From Gemmatimonadota bacterium (lineage in GTDB: Bacteria; Gemmatimonadota; Gemmatimonadetes; Longimicrobiales; Gaopeijiaceae), in NCBI GenBank assembly GCA_039589315.1, contig JBDHHQ010000006.1, forward strand, positions 64,001 through 128,000: 64,000 bases of DNA, given 5' to 3'. A program made the position numbers and the translations under genes. Of the stretch, positions 11,770 to 25,488 are shown piece by piece (positions within the stretch are counted from its first letter, which is position 1; each line of letters opens with the position of its first letter). The notes below the pieces were generated by a model. It was not told the DNA's origin and made no database searches. It worked only from the letters and a program-made list of their open reading frames with translations.

Positions 11770-14208
11770 TCAGGTCACGGGGGTCGTCTTCTTCTTGAGG
11801 ACGAAGAGACCTTCCCGCATGCTGGTCACGACGATGACCCCGCTCTGGAAGTACGGGTAGTTGCTCCAGGATCCGGCGAAGCCGGGAGCGTCCTCACCAA
11901 CCGACACCGTGTCGAAGTACCCCACCTCTTCGGGGTTCTCCGGGTCCGAGATATCCAGGATCCTCAGCCCGCTCGTGTAGTTGGACTGATACATGAGGTC
12001 GCCCTGGACATACAGGTTGTGGTCCGACGCGGAATTGCTGCCGAGATGCTCGTTCACCAGGATCGGATCGTCCAGATCGGCGATGTCCCAGACCAGGGTG
12101 CGGGTCCTCTCGACGGCGCCCGCCAACTCGTCGAGCTCGTCGTTCATGTAGAAGTAGCGGTGGTCGTCCGACACCCAGCCCTGGTGGAGGTAGGCGGAGT
12201 TCGGATACGCTGCCGAGGCCACGGCGATGGGGTTGGCCTTGTCGGACACGTCCGAGATGCTCAGAGCGTTCTCGTTGGCCCCGAAGCAGATCTCGCTGCC
12301 GGCGTAGTCCTCGTCGGGACCCTCGTACGCGATGCACTGGGCATCGTGGCTGTAGCCGGTGGAGGCAAGGCCCGTGTTGGAGTCGGAGAAGCACCCCGCG
12401 AACACCAAGCTCCCGGGCTCGCGGATGTCGATCATGTGAAGCCCTCCCCCGCACGTCTGTCCCCCGCCGCTGGCCCCCACCACGTAGGCGAACCCGGTGT
12501 CCTCGTTGATCACGATGTTGTGCGCGCTGTAGATCCCGTCGTAGTGGGCGGTCTCCTCGAAGACAACAGGCTCCGCTCCCACGTCCCGCAGCTGGGTGAG
12601 GTCGAAGACCTGCACACCGTGGGCGCCTGCGTTGTCGGCGACCACGAACGCGTGGTCTCGGTAGACCTTCACGTCGCGCCACATGTTGGCGATCGCGCCC
12701 TCGTGGAGGGGGAGCTCACCCAGATACACCGGGTTGGCGGCGTCGCTCACGTCGACGAACGCTGTGCCGTCGTTCCGGCCCACGATGGCGTACTCGCGAC
12801 CCGTCTCGGGGTCGGTCCATCCCCAGATGTCGTTCACGATCACGCCCCGCTCGCCCCCCAGGCCCTGCACCGGGACGAAGGCCACGAGGTCCACCTCCTC
12901 GCACGTGAACGACCGGGCCGTGCCTGACTGGCACTCGACGGGCCCACCCACGACGGCCTCCATCCCGCCGCTCTCGTCGAAGAGCTCCGCCCCGCTGGCC
13001 CACTCCCGCGTGGCGGGATCCAGGGCGTAGACATGCCCCGTGCCCTCAAAGAAGGCCTCTCCCGGGGCCCCGATGACCGCCACGTCACCTTCTGCGGCCA
13101 GGGCCTGTCCGAAGAATGCGAAGGGGGAGCCGAAGTCGATCTGTTGGACCTGCGTCCACGTTCCGGCGTCGGAGGGGCGGAACACGAAGGCGCCACCTGC
13201 TCCACCGCCGAGGAGGGGTGCGCCGAGGAACAGGTCGGTCTCGGAGAACGCCATCGAAAGCCCCGCCAGGGACTGGGGTGGGGCGTTCTCGGGCGCGATG
13301 ATCTCCCGCTGACCCCACTGTCCCGTCGCGTCGTCCGCCGCGAACCGGAACGCGCCGCCCGCGAACTGGTTGGCCAATGGTGCGGTGGCGAAGACGTGAC
13401 CGTCCCGAACGGCAACGGCCCAGCCCAGAGCGCCAGGGCCGGGGTCGGCGGGCCGAAGGTCGGCCACCGGGTTCCAGCCGTCGTCGTCCCGCTGGAAGAT
13501 GTGGACGGATCCGGGCAGGATCGTAGGCGGATTGGGGTCGGGAATCAGACTGATCATGTCTCCGGGCGCACCGGCGGCCAGAAGGCCGTCGGCCACGGCC
13601 AGCGCACTGCCGAACCGCGCGCCATCGGCGGCTTCCGCCGGCGTGAGCTCGGCTCCCCGGCTCCAGGTCCCGTCCTGACCCAGCGCGTACGCGATGACGC
13701 GGCCGGCGGGAGCCCGGTCGGGAGACGAGATCAGGGCCACGCCGTCCTCGAGGGCCACCGCCGAGCCGAATCCCTCCCCTTCCTCTCCGTCCTCGGGTGC
13801 GAGGCGCGTCACCTCGCGCCAACTCCCGTCCGGGGTACGCTGAAAGACCCAGGCCGCCCCAGCGCGGCCGGCCCGGGGCGCACCGACGAGCAGCAGGCCG
13901 CCGTCGACGGCCAGGGCGTCGCCGAACCCGATGCCGAGCTCCGCCCCGGTCGGTGACACCGTCGCGGACTCCACCCACTCACCGCCTCGGGGCACGAAGA
14001 CGTGCACCGCACCGGGCCGGTTGGCCGGCAGCGGGAACGCCCCCACTTCACCCGGTTGGCCGACGAAGAGCTCCCCGTCGTGGAACACGACGGTAGCGGC
14101 AAACGCGCCGGCCGAGACAGACGGGATACGCGACGATATGGACTGGGCGGCGGCCGGGGCGGCCAGCCCCAGCGCCAGCATGACTGCGACAGTCACGGAC
14201 CCCTGCAT
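11770..14208 (-). CDS. Secreted FG-GAP-repeat plus choice-of-anchor B domain protein (paralog 1)
   Basis: Signal peptide; FG.ALA..G...VGAP repeats; NDIWGWTDPETGREYA, WRDVKVY, HNIVIN, HDAQC, HQGW, HNLYV, WSNYPYF. Confidence 0.85.
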   Translation of the reverse strand: MQGSVTVAVMLALGLAAPAAAQSISSRIPSVSAGAFAATVVFHDGELFVGQPGEVGAFPLPANRPGAVHVFVPRGGEWVESATVSPTGAELGIGFGDALAVDGGLLLVGAPRAGRAGAAWVFQRTPDGSWREVTRLAPEDGEEGEGFGSAVALEDGVALISSPDRAPAGRVIAYALGQDGTWSRGAELTPAEAADGARFGSALAVADGLLAAGAPGDMISLIPDPNPPTILPGSVHIFQRDDDGWNPVADLRPADPGPGALGWAVAVRDGHVFATAPLANQFAGGAFRFAADDATGQWGQREIIAPENAPPQSLAGLSMAFSETDLFLGAPLLGGGAGGAFVFRPSDAGTWTQVQQIDFGSPFAFFGQALAAEGDVAVIGAPGEAFFEGTGHVYALDPATREWASGAELFDESGGMEAVVGGPVECQSGTARSFTCEEVDLVAFVPVQGLGGERGVIVNDIWGWTDPETGREYAIVGRNDGTAFVDVSDAANPVYLGELPLHEGAIANMWRDVKVYRDHAFVVADNAGAHGVQVFDLTQLRDVGAEPVVFEETAHYDGIYSAHNIVINEDTGFAYVVGASGGGQTCGGGLHMIDIREPGSLVFAGCFSDSNTGLASTGYSHDAQCIAYEGPDEDYAGSEICFGANENALSISDVSDKANPIAVASAAYPNSAYLHQGWVSDDHRYFYMNDELDELAGAVERTRTLVWDIADLDDPILVNEHLGSNSASDHNLYVQGDLMYQSNYTSGLRILDISDPENPEEVGYFDTVSVGEDAPGFAGSWSNYPYFQSGVIVVTSMREGLFVLKKKTTPVT

Positions 14209-16443: not shown

Positions 16444-16749
16444 ACGGGCGGTCCTGGCTGCGGGGATCGGATGATGCTCCTTGATAGGGGAAGTAGGCGG
16501 TGGGGGCAAACGGCTCCGCGCTCATGGGGATCCCCTCCAGGCGGCCCCGGCACGGAAGGCGTCCGGTGCGGAGCCATTTCGTCGCATTTCATGAATGAGC
16601 GGGTGCTCGCCAGCACGGGTCTGTCCCGGACACTGGGCCCGTGTTAGGCTATGTGCTGAACACGCCGCGGTGCTCGAGGTAGGTGACGGCAGACGCGCGA
16701 ACGAGGCGCCCTGGAAGGCCAGGTGGACCATCCAGCGGGGGAGAGCACA

Positions 16750-17268
16750 ATGGAGTTGGCCAGGCACGCCATCGGAGAGGGTCGGTCACGCATAGGTCCG
16801 GGCGCGGCTGCCCGGGGTGCAGCCGTCCCGGCGGACGCCCGGAGCGCACGGCCCGGCCGCGCCGAAGCCGTCGAGCCGGTGCGCGGGGTGCGTCGGATCG
16901 TGACGCTCAGCGCCGGATGGATCAGCTTGGCACTCGGCTTCCTCGGCGTCTTCCTGCCGTTGCTGCCGACGACGTGTTTCGTTCTCCTGGCTGGAGTCTG
17001 CTTCGCGCGAACCTCGCCCAGAGCGCATCGTTGGCTCTACCACAACCGGCTCTTCGGCCGGCACCTCACGTCCTACCGGGACGATCGTTCCGTGCCCATG
17101 GGGTTGAAGGTCGGATCGCTGACGCTCCTGTGGCTCACGGTGGGAGGCAGCGCCCTGGCCATCGACGGTCCCGGCTGGGTTCGGTTGACGCTGGTCGCCA
17201 TCGCGGTGGCCGTGACCGTGCATGTCGTGAGTCTGCAGACGCGGAAGGCCGCTCGCTCCAGGCCGTAG
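16750..17268 (+). CDS. YbaN/DUF454 family membrane protein
   Basis: LGFLGVFLPLLPTT.F.LLA..CFAR.SPR.H.WL motif. Confidence 0.85.
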   Translation: MELARHAIGEGRSRIGPGAAARGAAVPADARSARPGRAEAVEPVRGVRRIVTLSAGWISLALGFLGVFLPLLPTTCFVLLAGVCFARTSPRAHRWLYHNRLFGRHLTSYRDDRSVPMGLKVGSLTLLWLTVGGSALAIDGPGWVRLTLVAIAVAVTVHVVSLQTRKAARSRP

Positions 17269-17327
17269 GCCCACCGGGTGGACCCCATTCCTGATCCTTC
17301 GCCCCCAGGCAGCCGCCGAGTCATCGC

Positions 17328-18050
17328 GTGACCGTCTTGGATCTCGCCCAATCGGGCGGACTTTCGGACACCCTTGCCAACAGTCCTGTCCTGGCTTCTG
17401 TGACGCTGTTCGGGGCCGGTGTGCTGACGAGCCTCACGCCGTGCATCTACCCCATGATCCCCATCACCGCTTCGGTGCTGGCGGGCACGGCGGGAGACGA
17501 GCCCTCGCGCAGGCGGACGGTGGGCCTGACCCTGACATACGTGACGGGCTTGGCCCTCTTCTACGCCGTCCTGGGTCTCATGGCAGGGCTCACCGGGAGC
17601 CTGTTCGGCACGGTGAGCGCGAATCCGTGGGTGCGTTTCGCCACCGGCAACGTGCTTCTGCTCTTCGCCTTGGCCATGCTGGACGTGATCCCCCTCTCCG
17701 CTCCACAACGGCTCCTCAATTGGGCGGGAAACCTCGGGGGTGGATCGTACCCCGCGGTCTTCTTGCTGGGCGCCACGTCCGGCATCGTGGCCGCTCCGTG
17801 CGGCGCGCCCGCGTTTGCCGTGGTGCTCACGTGGGTGGCGGCGACCGGCGCCGGGGTCATGGGTTTCTTGTATCTGTTCGTCTTCTCCCTGGGGATGACG
17901 GCCCTACTGGTGGTGGTGGGCCTGTTCTCCGGCACGCTGGCTCGCTTGCCTCAGGCCGGTCGCTGGACCGGATGGATCAAGAAGAGCGCAGGAGTGATAA
18001 TGCTTGGCGTGGCCCAGTACTACTTCGTGCTGACGGGAATGGGACTGTGA
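17328..18050 (+). CDS. ccdA: CcdA/DsbD-type transmembrane electron transporter
   Basis: SLTPCIYPMIP and APCGAP paired-Cys motifs; 6 TM helices. Confidence 0.9.
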   Translation: MTVLDLAQSGGLSDTLANSPVLASVTLFGAGVLTSLTPCIYPMIPITASVLAGTAGDEPSRRRTVGLTLTYVTGLALFYAVLGLMAGLTGSLFGTVSANPWVRFATGNVLLLFALAMLDVIPLSAPQRLLNWAGNLGGGSYPAVFLLGATSGIVAAPCGAPAFAVVLTWVAATGAGVMGFLYLFVFSLGMTALLVVVGLFSGTLARLPQAGRWTGWIKKSAGVIMLGVAQYYFVLTGMGL

Positions 18051-18664
18051 AAGACGAACACGCTGCGATGGAGCTGGAGCGAGTGTGCTCGTCGGGCGCC
18101 ACGGGCCATCGGACCCTTCAGGCCTCTCCGTGGTCGTGGCTCCGGTGGCCGGTGCGGGTGACCCTGCTCCATCTGGCTCTGGTCCTTCCCGCGGCGATCG
18201 TCCCCGCGAGTCCCCTGGCCGCCCAGGAGCGGGGCGAGCTGGGGATCGCCGTGGGCTCCACCGTGGCGCCCGTGGTCGTCGAGGATCTGGACGGCAATCC
18301 GGCCGATCTGGGCGAGTACCTGGGGCAGGGCCCCATGCTCCTGGAGTTCTGGGCCAGCTGGTGCGAGAACTGCAGGGCGCTCCAACCCCGCATGGATGCT
18401 GCCCACGCAGCCTGGGGAGATCAGGTGGCCTTCGTGGCCATCGCGGTAGCCGTGAACCAGACACCGCGGCGGGTGCGGCGGCACATCGACAAGGAGCCGA
18501 TCCCGTATGCCGTGCTCTGGGACGACGGCGGTGGGGCGGTCCGTGCCTTCTTTGCGCCTGCGACCTCCTACGTGGTGGTCCTGGACTCGGCGGGCACCGT
18601 GACGTACACGGGTATCGGCCCCGACCAGGACATCGACGCCGCGGTTCGGACCGCTCTGGACTGA
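18047..18664 (+). CDS. TlpA-family exported thioredoxin-like disulfide reductase
   Basis: FWASWCENC (CxxC); signal peptide ending LAAQ; GTG start overlapping the ccdA stop (start uncertain). Confidence 0.85.
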   Translation: MKDEHAAMELERVCSSGATGHRTLQASPWSWLRWPVRVTLLHLALVLPAAIVPASPLAAQERGELGIAVGSTVAPVVVEDLDGNPADLGEYLGQGPMLLEFWASWCENCRALQPRMDAAHAAWGDQVAFVAIAVAVNQTPRRVRRHIDKEPIPYAVLWDDGGGAVRAFFAPATSYVVVLDSAGTVTYTGIGPDQDIDAAVRTALD

Positions 18665-18748
18665 GCCTACTGCCTGTCCGGGGGTCCTGGCCGGCGACGC
18701 CACGGCGGCTGCCGACGTCCGCTTCTACCCGGCTGCCGAATGGCGCTT

Positions 18749-19399
18749 CTAGCAGTCTCCGGGTGACAGTGTCCGTTGAAGCAGCAGGGCCAGGTCCACG
18801 CCGTCCCGACCGACCTCCTCCTCCTGCTCGAGCTCCGGCGCGACCGCGGCTACCGCCGCCGCCAATTCGTCGTAGGCGGTCGGATCGATCTCACGGAAGG
18901 GAGAGGCCGTGAACGCCACCCGGCCCTCGGGGTCCAGCACCGCCACCATGCGGGAGCCGGCCGAGCCACTCTCCCTCACCCCCACGCCGAGCTTCCGGAA
19001 GGAGTCCCCGTCGGGATCGGACGCGAACAACATGGGGAAGTCGGCATCCCGGGCCCAGGACGCGAGCTCATCGATGGGGTCCCTGCTTATGGCGATCACG
19101 GTGACGCCGCGCCCACCGCGGAAGATCGTAGCGTACTGATCACGGTACGCTTCCATTTGGATCGTTCACCCACGCGTTCGAGCACGGAAGAAGAACGCGA
19201 GCACGACGGCGTCGCCCCGGAAGTCGCTGAGCCGCACCGGATCGGCCAGAATCCCGTAGCGAGTGGCTCCCGGAAGCTCGAAGTCGGGTGCCATCGTACC
19301 GACAGCGATCGGATCCGGGTCGACGGCTTGCGCGCTCAGGGGAACGACGACAGCGCAGAGCGCGGCCGCGATGAGCAGTGCTGTGCGGAAGAGGCGCAT
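18749..19399 (-). CDS. Probable selenoprotein: exported peroxiredoxin (BCP/AhpC-TSA-like) with TxxU active site; TGA at 19166-19168 read as Sec
   Basis: ORFs 19166..19435 and 18749..19156 are in the same frame: APDFELP...VVLAFFFRARTRG[TGA]TIQMEAYR...ISRD...SRMVAVLDPEG. The TGA aligns with the peroxidatic Cys of the FYPxxxTPGCT motif, and a hairpin follows it. Confidence 0.85.
19130..19151 (-). promoter_or_regulatory. Candidate bacterial SECIS hairpin for the minus-strand peroxiredoxin
   Basis: mRNA AGCGUAC-CGUGAUCA-GUACGCU; perfect 7-bp stem with 14 nt between the UGA and the stem. Confidence 0.65.
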
Positions 19400-19540
19400 G
19401 GGCTGGTCCAGCTGGAGTGTCAGTTGGGCGGGCAACGCGTCAGTATAGGGCCTGGACGACGGCGCCGGCTACCACCAGCGCGACAACCTGCGCGTGACGC
19501 AGAGGCTGCTGGAAGATCTGGGTAGCCACGATCCCCATCC

Positions 19541-19744
19541 GACTCGGGCCTCTCCGGCGCGACGCGAGCCCTTCCGGCAGCTCGGGCCCTTCCTCCGCAG
19601 CCCAGAGCCCCTCCGCCGCGACTCGGGCCCATCCGCCGCAGCCAGAGCCCCTCCGCCGCGTCTCGGGCCCTTCTGCCGCAGCCTGGAGCACCTCCGCTGC
19701 AACTCGGGCCCTTCCGCCGCGACGGCAGCCCCTTCGCTGCAACC
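19541..19744. repeat. Degenerate tandem array of ~20-bp units (~10 copies) with partly alternating sub-types
   Basis: GACTCGGGCCCATCCGCCGC / AGCCAGAGCCCCTCCGCCGC / GTCTCGGGCCCTTCTGCCGC / AACTCGGGCCCTTCCGCCGC etc. Confidence 0.85.
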
Positions 19745-19941: not shown

Positions 19942-22311
19942 GTGAGGCAATCAACGAGCATTCTGTCGGTCGCGCTGCTGGCTTCGTTGGCGGCAACGTC
20001 CGGGCTTCAGGCACAGGGGTATGGCACCTCGGTGGCGGTGGGGGAGGACGAGGTGGTCGTGGCCGAGCCCCTGGTCGAAACCGGCCCGGGAGCGGTGTTC
20101 GTGTACTCCAAGGACGGCGGCGAGTGGGTGGAGGCGCAACGGGTGGAGGCATCCGACGCCTCCCAGGGAGACCACTTCGGCAGGGCGCTGGACCTGGACG
20201 GCAACACGCTGATTGTCGGTGCCACGGTCCGGGAGAACACCCGGGGTGCCGCGTACGTGTTCGAGCGGAGCGCCGACGGAGCCTGGGCCGAATCCCAGAT
20301 TCTGCTCGCGAGCGATGGAGCCGACGGCGACGCCTTTGGCCGGGTCGTGGCCGTCGAGGGTGACGTCGCGTTGGTCTCGACATGGGGACACGCGGACGGC
20401 CAGGGCGCAGTCTACGTGTTTCGACGGGACGCCTCTGGCTCGTGGTTCGAGGACGCCAAGCTCATGGGGAGCGACATCCGGCCGAACGAGTGGTTCGGGA
20501 TGAGCCTCGCCGTTCACGGCGAGACGGTTCTGGTGGGAGCTCCACAGAAGAACGGCAACCGTGGTGCGGTCTACGTGTTCCGCCGCGACGCGGAATCGGA
20601 CGCGTGGTTGGAGGCAGCGATTCTCTCCGAGGAGCTTCCTCAGAACGCGTCGTTCGGGATGGCCGTGGCGCTCAGCGGCGGCCGCGCCCTGGTGGGGGCA
20701 CCCGGTCTCTACAGCGGAAGCGGGATCGTCTTCGACTACCGCCTCGACCCGGAGGCCGGTTGGGTGGCGACCGGCGCCCTCAGCGCGTTCGATGCAGCCC
20801 TTCCCGGCGCTCAGTTCGGCACGACGATCGTGGACAGGGGGCAGGAGGTGTGGATCTCGGCCCCTGGAGCCGTCGGCGCGTCCGGGGCCGCGTACGTCTA
20901 CCGGCGCAGTGAAGAGGGCGAGTGGCGCGGAACCGACAAGGTCATGGTGCAGAACGAGGCCGGTGACCGCTTCGCCACGACCTTGGCCGTCAACGGACAG
21001 TTGGCCGTGGCCGGCGCCGTGGGAGACGACTACGGCGCCGGCACTGCGGTCATCATCGAGCGAGGTGAGCGGGAGTGGGCCGCTGTCTCTCGTGTCTGGA
21101 GCGAGGCCCAGACCCTGGACCCGCTCCTGGGTGGCAAGATCGAGTGCTCGGACGGCAAGGCGGCCTTGTTCGACTGCTCGGACGTGGACGTCCTCTCGTT
21201 CCTGCCGGTGCGGGAGATCGGCGGCTCACGGGGTGTACAGCTCAATGACGTGTGGGGGTGGGTCGATCCGGAGACCGGTCGCGAGTACGCTCTCGTCGGG
21301 CGGATGGACGGGACGTCCTTCATCGACGTGACCGATGCCGCCAACCCCGCCTACCTGGGCAACCTCCCCAAGCCGGAGCAGGCGCGCGCCAACGTGTGGA
21401 GAGACATCAAGGTGTACGCCGACCACGCTTACGTCGTCGCCGACGGAGCAGGGGAGCACGGCATGCAGGTCTTCGACCTGCGCCAGCTTCGCGACGTCAC
21501 GGCCGGGCCTGTCACGTTTCAGGAGATCGCCCACTACGACGGAATCCACAGCGCGCACAACATCGTGATCAACGAGGACACGGGCTTCGCCTACGTCGTG
21601 GGCAGCAACGGCGGCGGCAACAGCTGCGGCGGTGGCCTCCACATGATCGACATCCGCTCTCCGTCCAATCCGGTGTTCGCCGGTTGCTTCTTCGACACCG
21701 AGACGGGGAATCAGGGCACCGGCTACAGCCACGATGCCCAGTGCGTCACCTATCACGGGCCCGACGAGGACTACCAGGGAAGCGAGATTTGCTTCGGAGC
21801 CAACGAGACCGCGCTGAGCATCGCCGACGTCACCGACAAGGCGGAACCCGTGGCGTTGGCCAGCGCCTCGTACCCGAACGTCGGGTACTCCCACCAGGGT
21901 TGGCTCGACGAGGAGCACCGGTACCTCTACATGAACGACGAGCTCGACGAGTCCGCCGGCACCGTCGTAGGCACGCGGACGTTGGTCTGGGACGTGACCG
22001 ATCTCGACGATCCCATTCTCGTGAAGGAGCACTTCGCCGAGAACGGCGCCACCGACCACAACCTGTACGTCAGGGGCGACTTGATGTACCAATCCAACTA
22101 CCTGAGCGGCCTCCGGGTGTTGGACATCAGTGATCGCGAGAATCCGGTCGAGGTCGGGTACTTCGACACGGTGCCGTGGGGGGAGGATTCGCCTGAGATG
22201 GACGGCTCGTGGAGCAACTACCCGTACTTCGCCAGCGGGACGATCGTGGTGACCAGCCAGCGGGAAGGCGTCTTCTTCCTTCAGAAACGGGAGCGGAATC
22301 TGCTGCCCTGA
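19942..22311 (+). CDS. Secreted FG-GAP-repeat plus choice-of-anchor B domain protein (paralog 2)
   Basis: Signal peptide; same architecture and C-terminal motifs as 11770..14208. Confidence 0.85.
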   Translation: MRQSTSILSVALLASLAATSGLQAQGYGTSVAVGEDEVVVAEPLVETGPGAVFVYSKDGGEWVEAQRVEASDASQGDHFGRALDLDGNTLIVGATVRENTRGAAYVFERSADGAWAESQILLASDGADGDAFGRVVAVEGDVALVSTWGHADGQGAVYVFRRDASGSWFEDAKLMGSDIRPNEWFGMSLAVHGETVLVGAPQKNGNRGAVYVFRRDAESDAWLEAAILSEELPQNASFGMAVALSGGRALVGAPGLYSGSGIVFDYRLDPEAGWVATGALSAFDAALPGAQFGTTIVDRGQEVWISAPGAVGASGAAYVYRRSEEGEWRGTDKVMVQNEAGDRFATTLAVNGQLAVAGAVGDDYGAGTAVIIERGEREWAAVSRVWSEAQTLDPLLGGKIECSDGKAALFDCSDVDVLSFLPVREIGGSRGVQLNDVWGWVDPETGREYALVGRMDGTSFIDVTDAANPAYLGNLPKPEQARANVWRDIKVYADHAYVVADGAGEHGMQVFDLRQLRDVTAGPVTFQEIAHYDGIHSAHNIVINEDTGFAYVVGSNGGGNSCGGGLHMIDIRSPSNPVFAGCFFDTETGNQGTGYSHDAQCVTYHGPDEDYQGSEICFGANETALSIADVTDKAEPVALASASYPNVGYSHQGWLDEEHRYLYMNDELDESAGTVVGTRTLVWDVTDLDDPILVKEHFAENGATDHNLYVRGDLMYQSNYLSGLRVLDISDRENPVEVGYFDTVPWGEDSPEMDGSWSNYPYFASGTIVVTSQREGVFFLQKRERNLLP

Positions 22312-22336: not shown

Positions 22337-23428
22337 ATGACCGTGAACGCATCTCACGCCTCTCTCACTGCCGGTCGACGCCGGGGCGCGGCACTGCCCA
22401 TGGCGCTCGTGGCGATGGCCGCCACAGCCCCTCTGTCCGTCTCCGGCCAAGAGGGCCCCTACCTCTACGCAGCCGGCCAAGGCGCTGCCACGGTGTCCGT
22501 CATCGACGTGGGGTCCCTCGAGGTCGTGGAGACCGTCGACCTGCGGACCCTCGGCTTCTCGGGGAACGCCAAACCTCATCACATCGTCGTCGAGCCCGAT
22601 GGGTCTGCGTGGTACCTGTCGCTCATCGGCGAGAATCGGGTGCTGAAGTTCGATCGAGACAACGCCCTCGTCGGTCAGGTGGAGCTGGAGGTACCGGGCA
22701 TGCTGGCCATCCACCCGAGGGAAGACCTCTTGTACGTGGGCCGCTCCATGAGCGCGGTGAACCCGCCTCGGCGGATCGGCATCGTCGACCGGTCGGACAT
22801 GTCCGGCGATGAACTCGACGTCCTCTTCCCGCGGCCACACGCGCTCGCCGTCCGTCCCGAAGGCGACTTCGTCTACTCCGCCAGTCTCGCGGCCAACCAG
22901 ATGGCGACCATCGAGACGGATACCGACGCAGTCACGCTGGCCGAGTTGGAGGGAGAGACCCACACCCTCGTACAGTTCGCGATCTCGCCGGACGGGAGCA
23001 CGCTGGTGGCGACCGGTCAGCTCACCGGGTTGCTCCTCGTCTTCGACCTGGCCGACCCGGCATCGCCGCGGCTCGTCGACACCATCGCGGTGGGCGCGCA
23101 CCCCTGGCACCCGGTTTTCACGCCGGACGGCCGGTACGTGTACTTCGGCAACAAGCTCGCGAACACCGTCACGGTGATCGACGTGGAGGAACGGCGCGTG
23201 GCCAAGGTGGTCGAGGGATACGGCATCTCGGAGCCCCACGGAAGCGCCGTGTCCCCGGACGGCCGCTTCGCGTTCATCGCGAGCAACAATCTGGGCGGCG
23301 CGTACGCGTCCGACGACGGGTCGAGACCCGGCACGGTAACCGTGATCGACACGTCCACCTACGAGATCGTCGCCGTGGTCGAGGTGGGAGAAAACGCCAC
23401 AGGCCTGGGGATCCGGCCTCCGTCGTGA
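22337..23428 (+). CDS. YncE/YVTN-like (cytochrome d1-type) beta-propeller, exported
   Basis: Repeated PH...PDG...Y blades, TVTVID motifs, signal peptide. Confidence 0.8.
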   Translation: MTVNASHASLTAGRRRGAALPMALVAMAATAPLSVSGQEGPYLYAAGQGAATVSVIDVGSLEVVETVDLRTLGFSGNAKPHHIVVEPDGSAWYLSLIGENRVLKFDRDNALVGQVELEVPGMLAIHPREDLLYVGRSMSAVNPPRRIGIVDRSDMSGDELDVLFPRPHALAVRPEGDFVYSASLAANQMATIETDTDAVTLAELEGETHTLVQFAISPDGSTLVATGQLTGLLLVFDLADPASPRLVDTIAVGAHPWHPVFTPDGRYVYFGNKLANTVTVIDVEERRVAKVVEGYGISEPHGSAVSPDGRFAFIASNNLGGAYASDDGSRPGTVTVIDTSTYEIVAVVEVGENATGLGIRPPS

Positions 23429-23604
23429 GCCGGTTGGGGGACCGTGAGCCTGCGATCCCGGATCGAGTGACCCGACGAGGGCTCCGGCCGGCGCCGGCTC
23501 CATCGCCTGCCTGGTCCGCATCGCCGCCACATTGGTCCGACCCGAGTCTCGCTGCGGCGTGGTGGTCTCGACACGCAGTCGACGCTTCAACGCGACTCCA
23601 CGCC

Positions 23605-25488
23605 ATGCCATCGATGCCCCCGAGGTCCGCCGCGACTCGGTCTCGCCCGCGGCGGCTTCACCCCACTGCGCCTGCTGTCGCTCTGCCGTTTATGGCCGTG
23701 GTACTGGCCAGCTGCGCGCCGTCGACAGGTGTCGGGAGCTCAGGACCATCCCCTAGCGTCGAGACTACCGACTGGGAGCGGAGCGTCGACGGGGCATTCG
23801 CGGCGGACGAGGACGGCGTACCCTTCGCCTTTCCGTTCCTCGGGGGACTCAACGTCCCGCGGCCCCAGTTCGTCGACATCGACGCCGACGGCGACCTGGA
23901 CCTGTTCGTCCAGGAGCGCACCAACGACCTCATGTTCCTCGAGAACGTGGGCTCGGCGACGGCCGCGGTCTTCGAGTGGCGTACCGACCGGTTCATGAAT
24001 CTCGGCCTTGGTGAGTGGAACCGCTTCACGGACCTCGATGCCGACGGCGACCTGGATCTGCTGGCCGAGGAGCCGTTCAGCTACGTCCGCTACTACCGGA
24101 ATGACGGAAGCCCCCAAGCCCCGGCGTTCGTCCTGCTCCCGGACTCCGTGCTGGACGCCGAAGGGGAGCCGGTCTTCTCGGATCGGCAGAACATCCCCTC
24201 GGTGGCGGACATCGACTGCGACGGTCTCCCGGACCTGTTCCTGGGACGGGTCGAAGGGACCGTTACCCGATACGAGATGGTGCCCGGGACAGGCGCTGAT
24301 CCCCGGTTCCGCTTCGTCACTGGCCGCTTCGAGGACATCGAGATCGTGAACCAACTCGGGAGCCTGCACGGGGCCAACAGCATGGCCTTCGCCGACCATG
24401 ACGGCGACGGCGACGCGGACCTCTACTGGGGAGACTTCTTCGAGCCGGGTCTGCTCATCATCGAGAACCGGGGGTCGTGCGATGCCCCGAATCTACGGAG
24501 CGCGCCCGGTCCGGTCCCCGCCACCGCGCCCATCTCCACCAGCGGCTTCAACGCCCCCATGCCTGCGGATATCGACGGTGACGGGGACCTGGACCTCTTC
24601 GTCGGCGTGCTCGGCGGCGCGTTCAACCCCAACCGCACGGCTTCGGACAACTTCCACCTGTACGAGCGTCTGGCGGACGGCACCGTCGAGCTGCGCACGA
24701 CCCGTTACCTCGACGGCATCGATGTGGGAAGCGAGTCCCTCACCGTCCTGCGGGACCTCGACGCCGACAGCGACCTGGACCTTCTGATCTCAAACAAGAT
24801 CGACGCGCACGACCTTCAACGAGCCAGCCTCTACCGCTTCGACAACGTGGGCACGCCCACGGAGCCGAGGTTCCGCGCAGCGGGTACCTTCGACGTGGGC
24901 CGCGATTATCACATGGCGCCGGCATTCGGGGATCTGGACGGGGACGGAGACGACGACCTGCTGCTGGGAACCTGGAACAAGGGTGTGGCCCTGCTCTTGA
25001 ATGTCGGCACGCCCGAGGCTCCCCGCTTCACCGTAGCCGACTCGCAGTTCGTGAAGCTCACCCGGGGAAGCAACACCACGCCGACGCTGGGTGACCTGGA
25101 CGCCGACGGTGACCTGGACCTCGTCATCGGAGAAGCATCGGGGACGCTGAACTACTACCGGAACATCGGGTCCTCCGCCGAGCCGCGCTTCGAGTTGGTG
25201 AGCGATGAGTACGGCGGCTTCGATGTGGGTCGCCGGAGCGCTCCAACGCTGGTGGACGCTGACGGAGACCAGGACCTGGATCTGATCGTCGGACGGGAGA
25301 CGGGAGGTGTCTCGTTCTTCCGGAACGTCGGCACGCGCGCTGCTCCGGAGTTCGAGGAGGCCGAGGCGCCCGACCTGCCGCTCTGGTCCTTCGCGACTCC
25401 TTCGTTCGGTGATCTTGATGGGGACGGCGATCTGGATCTGGTGTCAGGGTCGGGAGCAGGTGGGGTGCTCTACCTGGAAGCGCGCTAG
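23605..25488 (+). CDS. FG-GAP/VCBS repeat lipoprotein
   Basis: About ten D.D.DGD.DL Ca-binding repeats; lipobox VLASC; start uncertain (ORF open from 23425). Confidence 0.8.
   Translation: MPSMPPRSAATRSRPRRLHPTAPAVALPFMAVVLASCAPSTGVGSSGPSPSVETTDWERSVDGAFAADEDGVPFAFPFLGGLNVPRPQFVDIDADGDLDLFVQERTNDLMFLENVGSATAAVFEWRTDRFMNLGLGEWNRFTDLDADGDLDLLAEEPFSYVRYYRNDGSPQAPAFVLLPDSVLDAEGEPVFSDRQNIPSVADIDCDGLPDLFLGRVEGTVTRYEMVPGTGADPRFRFVTGRFEDIEIVNQLGSLHGANSMAFADHDGDGDADLYWGDFFEPGLLIIENRGSCDAPNLRSAPGPVPATAPISTSGFNAPMPADIDGDGDLDLFVGVLGGAFNPNRTASDNFHLYERLADGTVELRTTRYLDGIDVGSESLTVLRDLDADSDLDLLISNKIDAHDLQRASLYRFDNVGTPTEPRFRAAGTFDVGRDYHMAPAFGDLDGDGDDDLLLGTWNKGVALLLNVGTPEAPRFTVADSQFVKLTRGSNTTPTLGDLDADGDLDLVIGEASGTLNYYRNIGSSAEPRFELVSDEYGGFDVGRRSAPTLVDADGDQDLDLIVGRETGGVSFFRNVGTRAAPEFEEAEAPDLPLWSFATPSFGDLDGDGDLDLVSGSGAGGVLYLEAR

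Follow-up and report, generated by a model that had tools for sequence, protein, structure and literature searches.

Introduction

Sohling et al. are said to have described, in 2001, a peroxiredoxin (Prx) that contains selenocysteine (Sec), namely PrxU of Eubacterium acidaminophilum. According to the available passages of two further sources, Sec peroxiredoxins with a TxxU motif represent an established selenoprotein family (PMC1794560, PMC13188914); one of them, a review from 2026, gives their conserved motif as PxxxTxxU (PMC13188914). The Sargasso Sea catalogue of 2005 lists 43 sequences, assigned to COG1225, under 'Peroxiredoxin (Prx), TxxU' (PMC1088965), and the Global Ocean Sampling catalogue of 2008 lists 253 Prx TxxU sequences (PMC2398784). 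For exported peroxiredoxins of the PrxQ type, a proven periplasmic pathway leads in Caulobacter from ScsB, a member of the DsbD family, via TlpA to the peroxiredoxin PprX (available passages of PMC3322552). Here we analyse a gene in a stretch of 64,000 nucleotides from a Gemmatimonadota bacterium (assembly GCA_039589315.1, contig JBDHHQ010000006.1, positions 64,001 to 128,000 of the forward strand; in the following called the window), which very likely encodes an exported BCP/PrxQ-like peroxiredoxin with Sec as the peroxidatic residue.

A sequence-only reading of the window had proposed a hidden, exported, BCP-like selenoprotein at this locus and had assumed that its family is new. The proposal is corroborated by the Sec machinery of the host, a conserved TGA codon followed by a hairpin that resembles a Sec insertion sequence (SECIS), and a BCP-like predicted fold, all of which are described below. 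The assumption has to be given up, as the catalogue of 2005 already lists a member of the same clade, and Sec peroxiredoxins as a kind are not new. The respective Sargasso Sea entry AACY01587908 ('Peroxiredoxin', TGA; supplement of PMC1088965) contains the same ...AFFFRVRTRGu... loop, and its DNA carries the same GCGTACCGTGATCAGTACGC hairpin; by eye it is close to L041, one of the loci compared here. It starts with MAPDF, so that no signal peptide is seen in it, and the passage names no organism. The catalogue passages at hand hold nothing on a Phe-for-Pro exchange, a link to Gemmatimonadota or neighbouring genes. Likewise, in the literature searched we found no paper on a Phe variant, on an FxxxTxxU motif or on a Sec peroxiredoxin of Gemmatimonadota, while subscription papers and unopened supplements may hold more.

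Compared to PrxU, the protein encoded in the window shares the Sec at the peroxidatic position, the AhpC/TSA fold and the TxxU motif. It differs in being BCP-like and exported and in carrying a Phe, whereas PrxU-type proteins of the phylum are AhpC/Prx1-like and keep the Pro. With PprX of Caulobacter crescentus it has in common that it belongs to the exported PrxQ/BCP type, and that a TlpA-like gene and a gene for the DsbD-family protein CcdA adjoin. PprX, however, contains Cys, Pro and a resolving Cys, while the protein studied here contains Sec and Phe, its family usually lacks a second Cys, and CcdA takes the place of ScsB; moreover, the electron path is proposed here from the gene neighbourhood only. 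Similarity to the solved BCP/PrxQ structures (5enu, 3hjp, 5epf, 3drn, 2ywn) and to AhpE (1xvw) is evident from template modelling (TM) scores of 0.78-0.86, normalised on the target, and from the alignment of the active sites. With these structures it shares only 22-29% sequence identity; it has no Cys five residues past the peroxidatic position, and Sec and Phe71 replace Cys and Pro.

Results and Discussion

The reading frame and its in-frame TGA codon

The reading frame starts on the minus strand with an ATG at 19399, ends with a TAG at 18751..18749 and comprises 216 codons plus the stop codon. Codon 78 (19168..19166) is its sole in-frame TGA, after which the frame continues for another 138 codons. 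Pfam AhpC-TSA (PF00578) matches residues 33-162 and hence spans the TGA, with an E value of 2.1e-22 and a score of 79.8 bits (cut-off 26). In the alignment with the solved BCP structure 2ywn, the peroxidatic Cys is matched by U78, and the Thr, Pro and Arg of the active site are matched by T75, F71 and R150, respectively. R150, located in the segment SRMVAVLD, thereby corresponds to the catalytic Arg and is unchanged in 28 of 28 aligned homologs, and the position of T75 is occupied by Thr or Ser in at least 90% of them. In line with these data, the sequence-only reading had placed the TGA exactly on the peroxidatic position, had noticed the 138-codon continuation with peroxiredoxin motifs and the catalytic Arg, and had described the Thr of PxxxTxxC as retained and the Pro as replaced by Phe. 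It had also pointed out that the last residue is the lone Cys of the mature protein, and this holds as well: the only Cys residues are C15, which lies within the signal peptide, and C216. A scan of the window from 18600 to 19600 for promoters and terminators found none. The coordinates of all features are summarised in Table 1.

Table 1. Features of the peroxiredoxin locus, in coordinates of the window.
Feature	Position	Strand	Basis
Whole peroxiredoxin gene, very likely exported, Sec-containing and BCP/PrxQ-like	18749..19399	-	Frame, Pfam AhpC-TSA, predicted fold
UGA codon 78 at the peroxidatic position, almost certainly read as Sec	19166..19168	-	TGA in 105/109 loci and Sec machinery
Phe71 codon TTC, where PxxxTxxC has its Pro	19187..19189	-	Alignment with 2ywn and residue counts
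Codon of Arg150, conserved catalytic Arg	18950..18952	-	Aligned to the Arg of 2ywn; 28/28 invariant
SECIS-like hairpin within the coding sequence: GCGUAC, loop CGUGAUCA, GUACGC	19131..19150	-	Stem 105/105; synonymous sites frozen
Predicted signal peptide, codons 1-25 (MRLFR, hydrophobic core, SAQA before VDP), with a putative cleavage site	19325..19399	-	Read by eye
C-terminal acidic tail covering about residues 191-216, with Cys216 (candidate resolving Cys) as its last residue, sub-clade-specific	18752..18829	-	8/104 Sec forms; low pLDDT
TlpA/ResA-like exported thioredoxin with WCxxC, putative direct reductant	18152..18664 (start GTG 18152 or ATG 18068)	+	Pfam Redoxin, AhpC-TSA, Thioredoxin
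CcdA, DsbD-type transmembrane electron transporter, putative source of electrons from the cytoplasm	17328..18050	+	DsbD_TM 1.5e-44

Evidence for decoding of the TGA codon as selenocysteine

The host genome (6.67 Mb in 288 contigs) contains selA (531 bits), selB (335 bits), selD (370 bits) and a tRNA-Sec (75 bits), all of which score above the curated cut-offs; ARAGORN agrees on the tRNA and assigns it the anticodon tca. The selD gene of the host (L016, C5:69192-70112, minus strand) is itself a selenoprotein gene with an in-frame TGA in the classic context HGAGU-ACKLG, and a 7-bp hairpin with the loop GAUGU lies 9 nt after this TGA.

Orthologs of the peroxiredoxin were searched in 60 relatives and in the own genome, and close orthologs were obtained from two families of the order. 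The active-site codon is TGA in 27 of the 29 loci from this search and TGC in the remaining two. A scan with one genome per species yielded 535 related loci, the best 80 of which were kept; these stem from metagenome-assembled genomes labelled Longimicrobiales, Gemmatimonadales, Gemmatimonadota or Candidatus Palauibacter. Both sets together form a collection of 109 loci, a few of which represent the same genome twice. Among these, the peroxidatic codon is TGA in 105 and TGC in four, just the two codons that had been expected from an alignment of homologs, and the Sec forms amount to 100 distinct sequences. In a broader sample of the phylum, which takes in one genome flagged as unpublished (G212), 328 of 401 genomes have a member of this peroxiredoxin family at E<=1e-25. 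An in-frame TGA is present in 145 of the 150 rows listed from this sample; in very few of these 145 the TGA may be just the stop codon (e.g. G038/L040, where the active-site codon is TGC). Moreover, 103 full-length homologs from the database have a Cys at the aligned position, and the sequence is conserved on both flanks of the TGA. Among public sequencing runs, none from RNA was listed as containing the locus, and the listed DNA runs contain at most 0.11 of the words sampled.

The database record itself could be taken to indicate a broken gene, a sequencing error or two separate small genes. The gene of the window is present in the protein collection only as a C-terminal piece of 135 residues (P0002), which starts with MEAYRDQY, and 13 of the 120 database matches listed are C-terminal fragments of this kind. 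These 13 also start with MEAYRDQY, which identifies them as truncated calls of Sec forms; the other matches comprise the 103 full-length Cys forms and four proteins that we left unclassified. A sequencing error or a pseudogene is effectively excluded, because the TGA is found at the same codon across many assemblies and its flanks are conserved. In addition, a single Pfam domain and a single predicted fold bridge the TGA, and the Sec machinery of the host is complete, so that a broken gene or a pair of small genes is extremely improbable. Taken together with the hairpin described below, the locus is thus almost certainly a genuine, intact and mis-annotated selenoprotein gene with its own SECIS element.

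Some orthologs contain another TGA close to their 3' end, which was considered as a C-terminal Sec codon and rejected, as many orthologs have TAG or TAA there, which marks these codons as ordinary stops. Prx-like thiol:disulfide oxidoreductases with a UxxC motif are further selenoproteins found in relatives; the motif reads FYRGHWUPFC in six loci (L131, L132, L133, L137, L138 and L142) and FTUGFC in a seventh (L135). Gemmatimonadota therefore seem to possess a rich thioredoxin-fold selenoproteome.

A SECIS-like hairpin within the coding sequence

UGA codon 78 would be recoded by SelB and tRNA-Sec, whereby the signal would be a hairpin inside the coding sequence. This hairpin begins 15 nt after the UGA, consists of a 6-bp stem and an 8-nt loop and encodes the peptide AYRDQYA. 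RNAalifold, applied to 27 Sec forms, predicts exactly this 6-bp stem, and all 27 have retained each of its pairs. An identical stem is shared by all 105 Sec forms, and the loop reads CGUGAUCA in 98 of them and differs by one to three bases in the other seven. None of the four TGC forms has kept the hairpin. One of them, L040, whose nearest relatives are Sec forms, retains the 5' arm, while two bases of the loop are changed and the 3' arm is broken; judging by its sequence, this looks like a decaying SECIS element.

Part of the hairpin conservation arises because the element encodes AYRDQYA, and synonymous sites serve to separate both effects. In the Sec forms, the codons of the hairpin are virtually fixed (GCG 105/105, TAC 105/105, CGT 101/105, GAT 103/105, CAG 103/103 and TAC 105/105), whereas conserved residues outside the hairpin use two to six codons. 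Hereof, Gln at +3 is encoded by CAA in 54 and by CAG in 51 cases, Asp at -19 by GAC in 80 and by GAT in 20, and Ala at +12 by four different codons. The two U-ending codons of the loop are, moreover, unusual in these G+C-rich genomes.

Several observations weigh against the assignment as SECIS element. As the stem never varies, RNAalifold finds zero compensatory pairs. The conserved peptide nearly dictates the stem, which leaves the U residues of the loop and the fixed codons as the only protein-independent features. Folding of the single sequence over 76 nt after the UGA does show the hairpin, with an energy that is no better than that of shuffled sequences (z -0.5). Finally, a search against Rfam returned three matches far below the gathering scores, none of them to a SECIS family.

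Fold, predicted export and probable peroxidase activity

The AlphaFold2 model, based on an alignment of 28 sequences, has a mean predicted local distance difference test (pLDDT) score of 85.4, with low values confined to the signal peptide and the last 25 or so residues. The top matches of this predicted model among PDB entries, as found by Foldseek, are BCP/PrxQ proteins (5enu, 3hjp, 5epf and 3drn, TM 0.82-0.86 on the target), and the 1-Cys protein AhpE (1xvw) follows close behind in the ranking. At the same time, all scores stay below the equivalog cut-offs of NCBIfam, with 45.1 versus 140 for BCP (NF006960), 31.3 versus 260 for PrxQ (NF053650) and 31.1 versus 270 for PrxU (NF040737). The peroxiredoxin is a separate sub-family among the BCP-like enzymes.

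All 29 orthologs inspected have an equivalent N-terminus in their sequence, which is first basic, then hydrophobic and ends in AQ or AQA. As every N-terminus that was read is such a leader, we infer that the peroxiredoxin is exported to the periplasm, and it would leave the cytoplasm by way of this signal peptide.

In the periplasm, T75 and R150 would position the selenolate of U78, which would reduce a hydroperoxide and thereby be converted to a selenenic acid. That the protein has peroxidase activity is likely from its sequence, yet the Pro that defines PxxxTxxC is absent, which counts against this assignment, so that we infer the activity rather than regard it as assured. A true selenoprotein could also serve another periplasmic redox role, e.g. 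as a Sec-dependent thiol/disulfide or sulfenic-acid reductase or as a relay. Such a role would agree with the Phe in place of a Pro that is called absolutely conserved in peroxiredoxins in the available part of PMC3322552, with the invariant Arg74 in the active loop and with the scores below all NCBIfam peroxiredoxin equivalog cut-offs. It would also have a precedent in Caulobacter PrxL, which is likewise a substrate of ScsB and for which the same passages give no detectable peroxidase activity (PMC3322552). Nevertheless, the protein retains Thr75, Arg150 and the peroxidatic position, its predicted fold is BCP-like, and PxxxTxxC is complete in the close Cys forms. A function other than that of a peroxidase is, on balance, improbable.

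Cysteine content and the C-terminal tail

With respect to its Cys content, the family is of the 1-Cys type: the mature part is free of Cys in 96 of 104 complete Sec forms, and 100 of 101 Cys forms lack a second one. The remaining eight Sec forms, including the gene of the window, possess an acidic extension of 20-25 residues with a single Cys among the last three residues (e.g. ...SPGDC). The label of a '1-Sec' peroxiredoxin given in the sequence-only reading hence fits the family, whereas the protein of the window is one of the few with a C-terminal Cys. The model has pLDDT values of 54-69 over the extension. In this sub-clade, Cys216 may first form a selenenylsulfide; a role of Cys216 as the resolving residue is, however, a tentative proposal that we consider somewhat doubtful.

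A Phe-for-Pro exchange that tracks selenocysteine

Phe71 in place of the usual active-site Pro would be a partner change to Sec. At the position seven residues before the active site (-7), the 105 Sec forms have Phe in 104 cases and Tyr in one, while Pro is present in all four TGC loci. Among the 103 full-length Cys forms of the database, Pro occurs in 101, Phe in one (P0037) and Tyr in one (P0052). When these data are pooled, Phe or Tyr accompanies Sec in 105 of 105 Sec forms, and Pro accompanies Cys in 105 of 107 Cys forms. P0037, which combines Cys with Phe, is placed among Sec forms and would have changed from Sec to Cys recently. In the four unclassified database proteins (P0040, P0058, P0083 and P0103), the active-site position is L or W and position -7 is Phe or Tyr; these proteins may be Sec forms for which a different code was used in translation.

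The other peculiarity of the active loop, its richness in Arg, had been called unusual in the sequence-only reading. The Arg residues are indeed there, but they are not linked to Sec: none of the 28 aligned homologs, both TGC forms included, deviates at R74, and Cys-form proteins from the database also have RT before xGC. The anionic substrate or partner that the sequence-only reading had put forward as a possibility is speculative. As far as these alignments show, the Arg-rich loop is a family trait, and only the change from Pro to Phe tracks Sec.

For the phylogenetic analysis, trees were built without the columns around -7 and 0 (columns 38-41 and 45-48 dropped). FastTree, run on 202 rows, implies at least nine changes between Sec and Cys and at least nine between Phe and Pro, whereby Cys-Pro and Sec-Phe clades interleave. 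A quick IQ-TREE run with 115 representatives, one per group of 85% identity within a state, gives ten changes of either kind. A single Sec clade is rejected by the approximately unbiased (AU) test with a log-likelihood difference of 177 (p 0.0005). In the IQ-TREE result, four independent pairs are located on well-supported branches; Phe/Pro changed the same way in three of them, the opposite way in none and stayed unchanged in one, numbers that are too few for a significant sign test. Although two bases have to change to turn Phe into Pro, the exchange is seen repeatedly.

Based on these sequence comparisons, the pairing of Sec with Phe and of Cys with Pro may reflect an epistasis within the active site, flipped together repeatedly in Gemmatimonadota, although we hold this to be slightly short of an even chance. 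One guess at the underlying chemistry is that Phe shields or stabilises the selenenic acid of a 1-Sec enzyme that has no resolving Cys and operates in the oxidising periplasm. The pairing could also have a cause outside the active-site chemistry, either a constraint of the nascent peptide or the mRNA on UGA decoding or a small number of ancestral events on an uncertain tree. The small number of independent pairs on well-supported branches, with which a sign test cannot reach significance, fits such a cause, as does the biased sample of loci, i.e. the best 80 of 535. It is at odds with the PrxU/AhpC-type Sec peroxiredoxins of the same phylum (L136 G011:C192 and L141 G040:C1), which read YPGDFTFVU and thus have a Pro seven residues before U. 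Since these genes keep Pro together with Sec, a Pro at -7 does not prevent Sec decoding in them. The outcome of the AU test and the recurrence of the exchange in spite of the two base changes also argue against it, and a cause outside the active site appears rather unlikely.

Neighbouring genes and the likely reductant

A gene pair for CcdA and a TlpA-like protein is arranged tail to tail with the peroxiredoxin gene at a distance of 84 nt. W81, C82 and C85 of the TlpA-like protein are unchanged in 29 sequences. A TlpA-like gene lies convergently downstream in 77 of the 97 Sec loci whose flanking sequence reaches 700 nt or more and is absent from that position in all four Cys-form loci. In the first set of 29, 16 of 17 loci have CcdA beside this gene. 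Because it is the convergent neighbour in 77 of 97 Sec loci, the TlpA-like thioredoxin is the likely reductant. Here, the WCxxC thioredoxin would reduce the peroxiredoxin, and CcdA would recharge the thioredoxin with electrons from the cytoplasm. By analogy, we slightly favour this path from CcdA via the TlpA-like protein.

CcdA together with a ResA/TlpA-like thioredoxin also serves cytochrome maturation. The pair might hence be unrelated to the peroxiredoxin, e.g. be devoted to the maturation of cytochrome c or of an oxidase, with a different periplasmic thiol recycling the peroxiredoxin. In cytochrome oxidase maturation, TlpA homologs have a known role according to the available passages of PMC3322552. 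The TlpA-like and peroxiredoxin genes are convergent and not co-transcribed, and 20 of the 97 Sec loci do not show the arrangement; all of this weighs against the proposed path. Against an unrelated pair, in turn, stand the retention of the arrangement in 77 of 97 loci, from families that share only about 50% identity in their proteins, and the nature of the adjoining genes, which are not of the resB/resC type and instead encode DUF454 and a HEAT/cyclophilin protein. An unrelated function of the pair thus has an appreciable chance of being correct, even if we would not bet on it.

DUF454 and the HEAT/cyclophilin protein are encoded upstream of CcdA, and an FG-GAP/LVIVD repeat protein is encoded on the other side of the peroxiredoxin gene. 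Altogether, genes for three large proteins with FG-GAP or LVIVD repeats surround the locus, at 11770-14208 (minus strand), 19942-22311 (plus strand) and 23425-25488 (plus strand). The one at 19942 has an ortholog beside the peroxiredoxin only in a genome of the same genus. A tandem array occupies positions 19540-19737 of the window between the start of the peroxiredoxin gene and the divergent FG-GAP gene, for which Tandem Repeats Finder (TRF) reports 41-nt units in 3.4 copies with 86% matches, and also periods of 20 and 81.

For the whole window, 249 TGA-bridged frames are listed. An open reading frame at 16683-17294 (plus strand, 203 residues), which is in frame with CcdA via a TGA, was considered as a Sec-linked fusion and discarded, as it is an Arg-rich shadow frame without a Pfam match. 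The real gene at that spot is that of DUF454 (YbaN-like), which lies in another frame at 16723-17268 (plus strand).

Conclusions

In conclusion, the peroxiredoxin belongs to a kind of protein that was already known, and no long-standing question is opened by it alone. What it adds to the earlier catalogue, whose category it leaves unchanged, is the repeated coupling of Sec with Phe and of Cys with Pro and the tail with a C-terminal Cys of one sub-clade. If its proposed role holds, this Cys on its acidic tail would constitute a built-in resolving arm in the sub-clade of the window's gene. The gene of the window and hundreds of its orthologs in Gemmatimonadota are fragmented or truncated by gene callers, and because of this both the selenoproteome of the phylum and its antioxidant defence of the envelope are under-counted. 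If the pairing is true, the Sec/Phe and Cys/Pro forms would represent a natural experiment on how the active site of a peroxiredoxin is tuned to selenium or to sulfur. The pairing would then bear on the role of the conserved Pro and on why selenium is preferred in an exported enzyme of the 1-Cys type.

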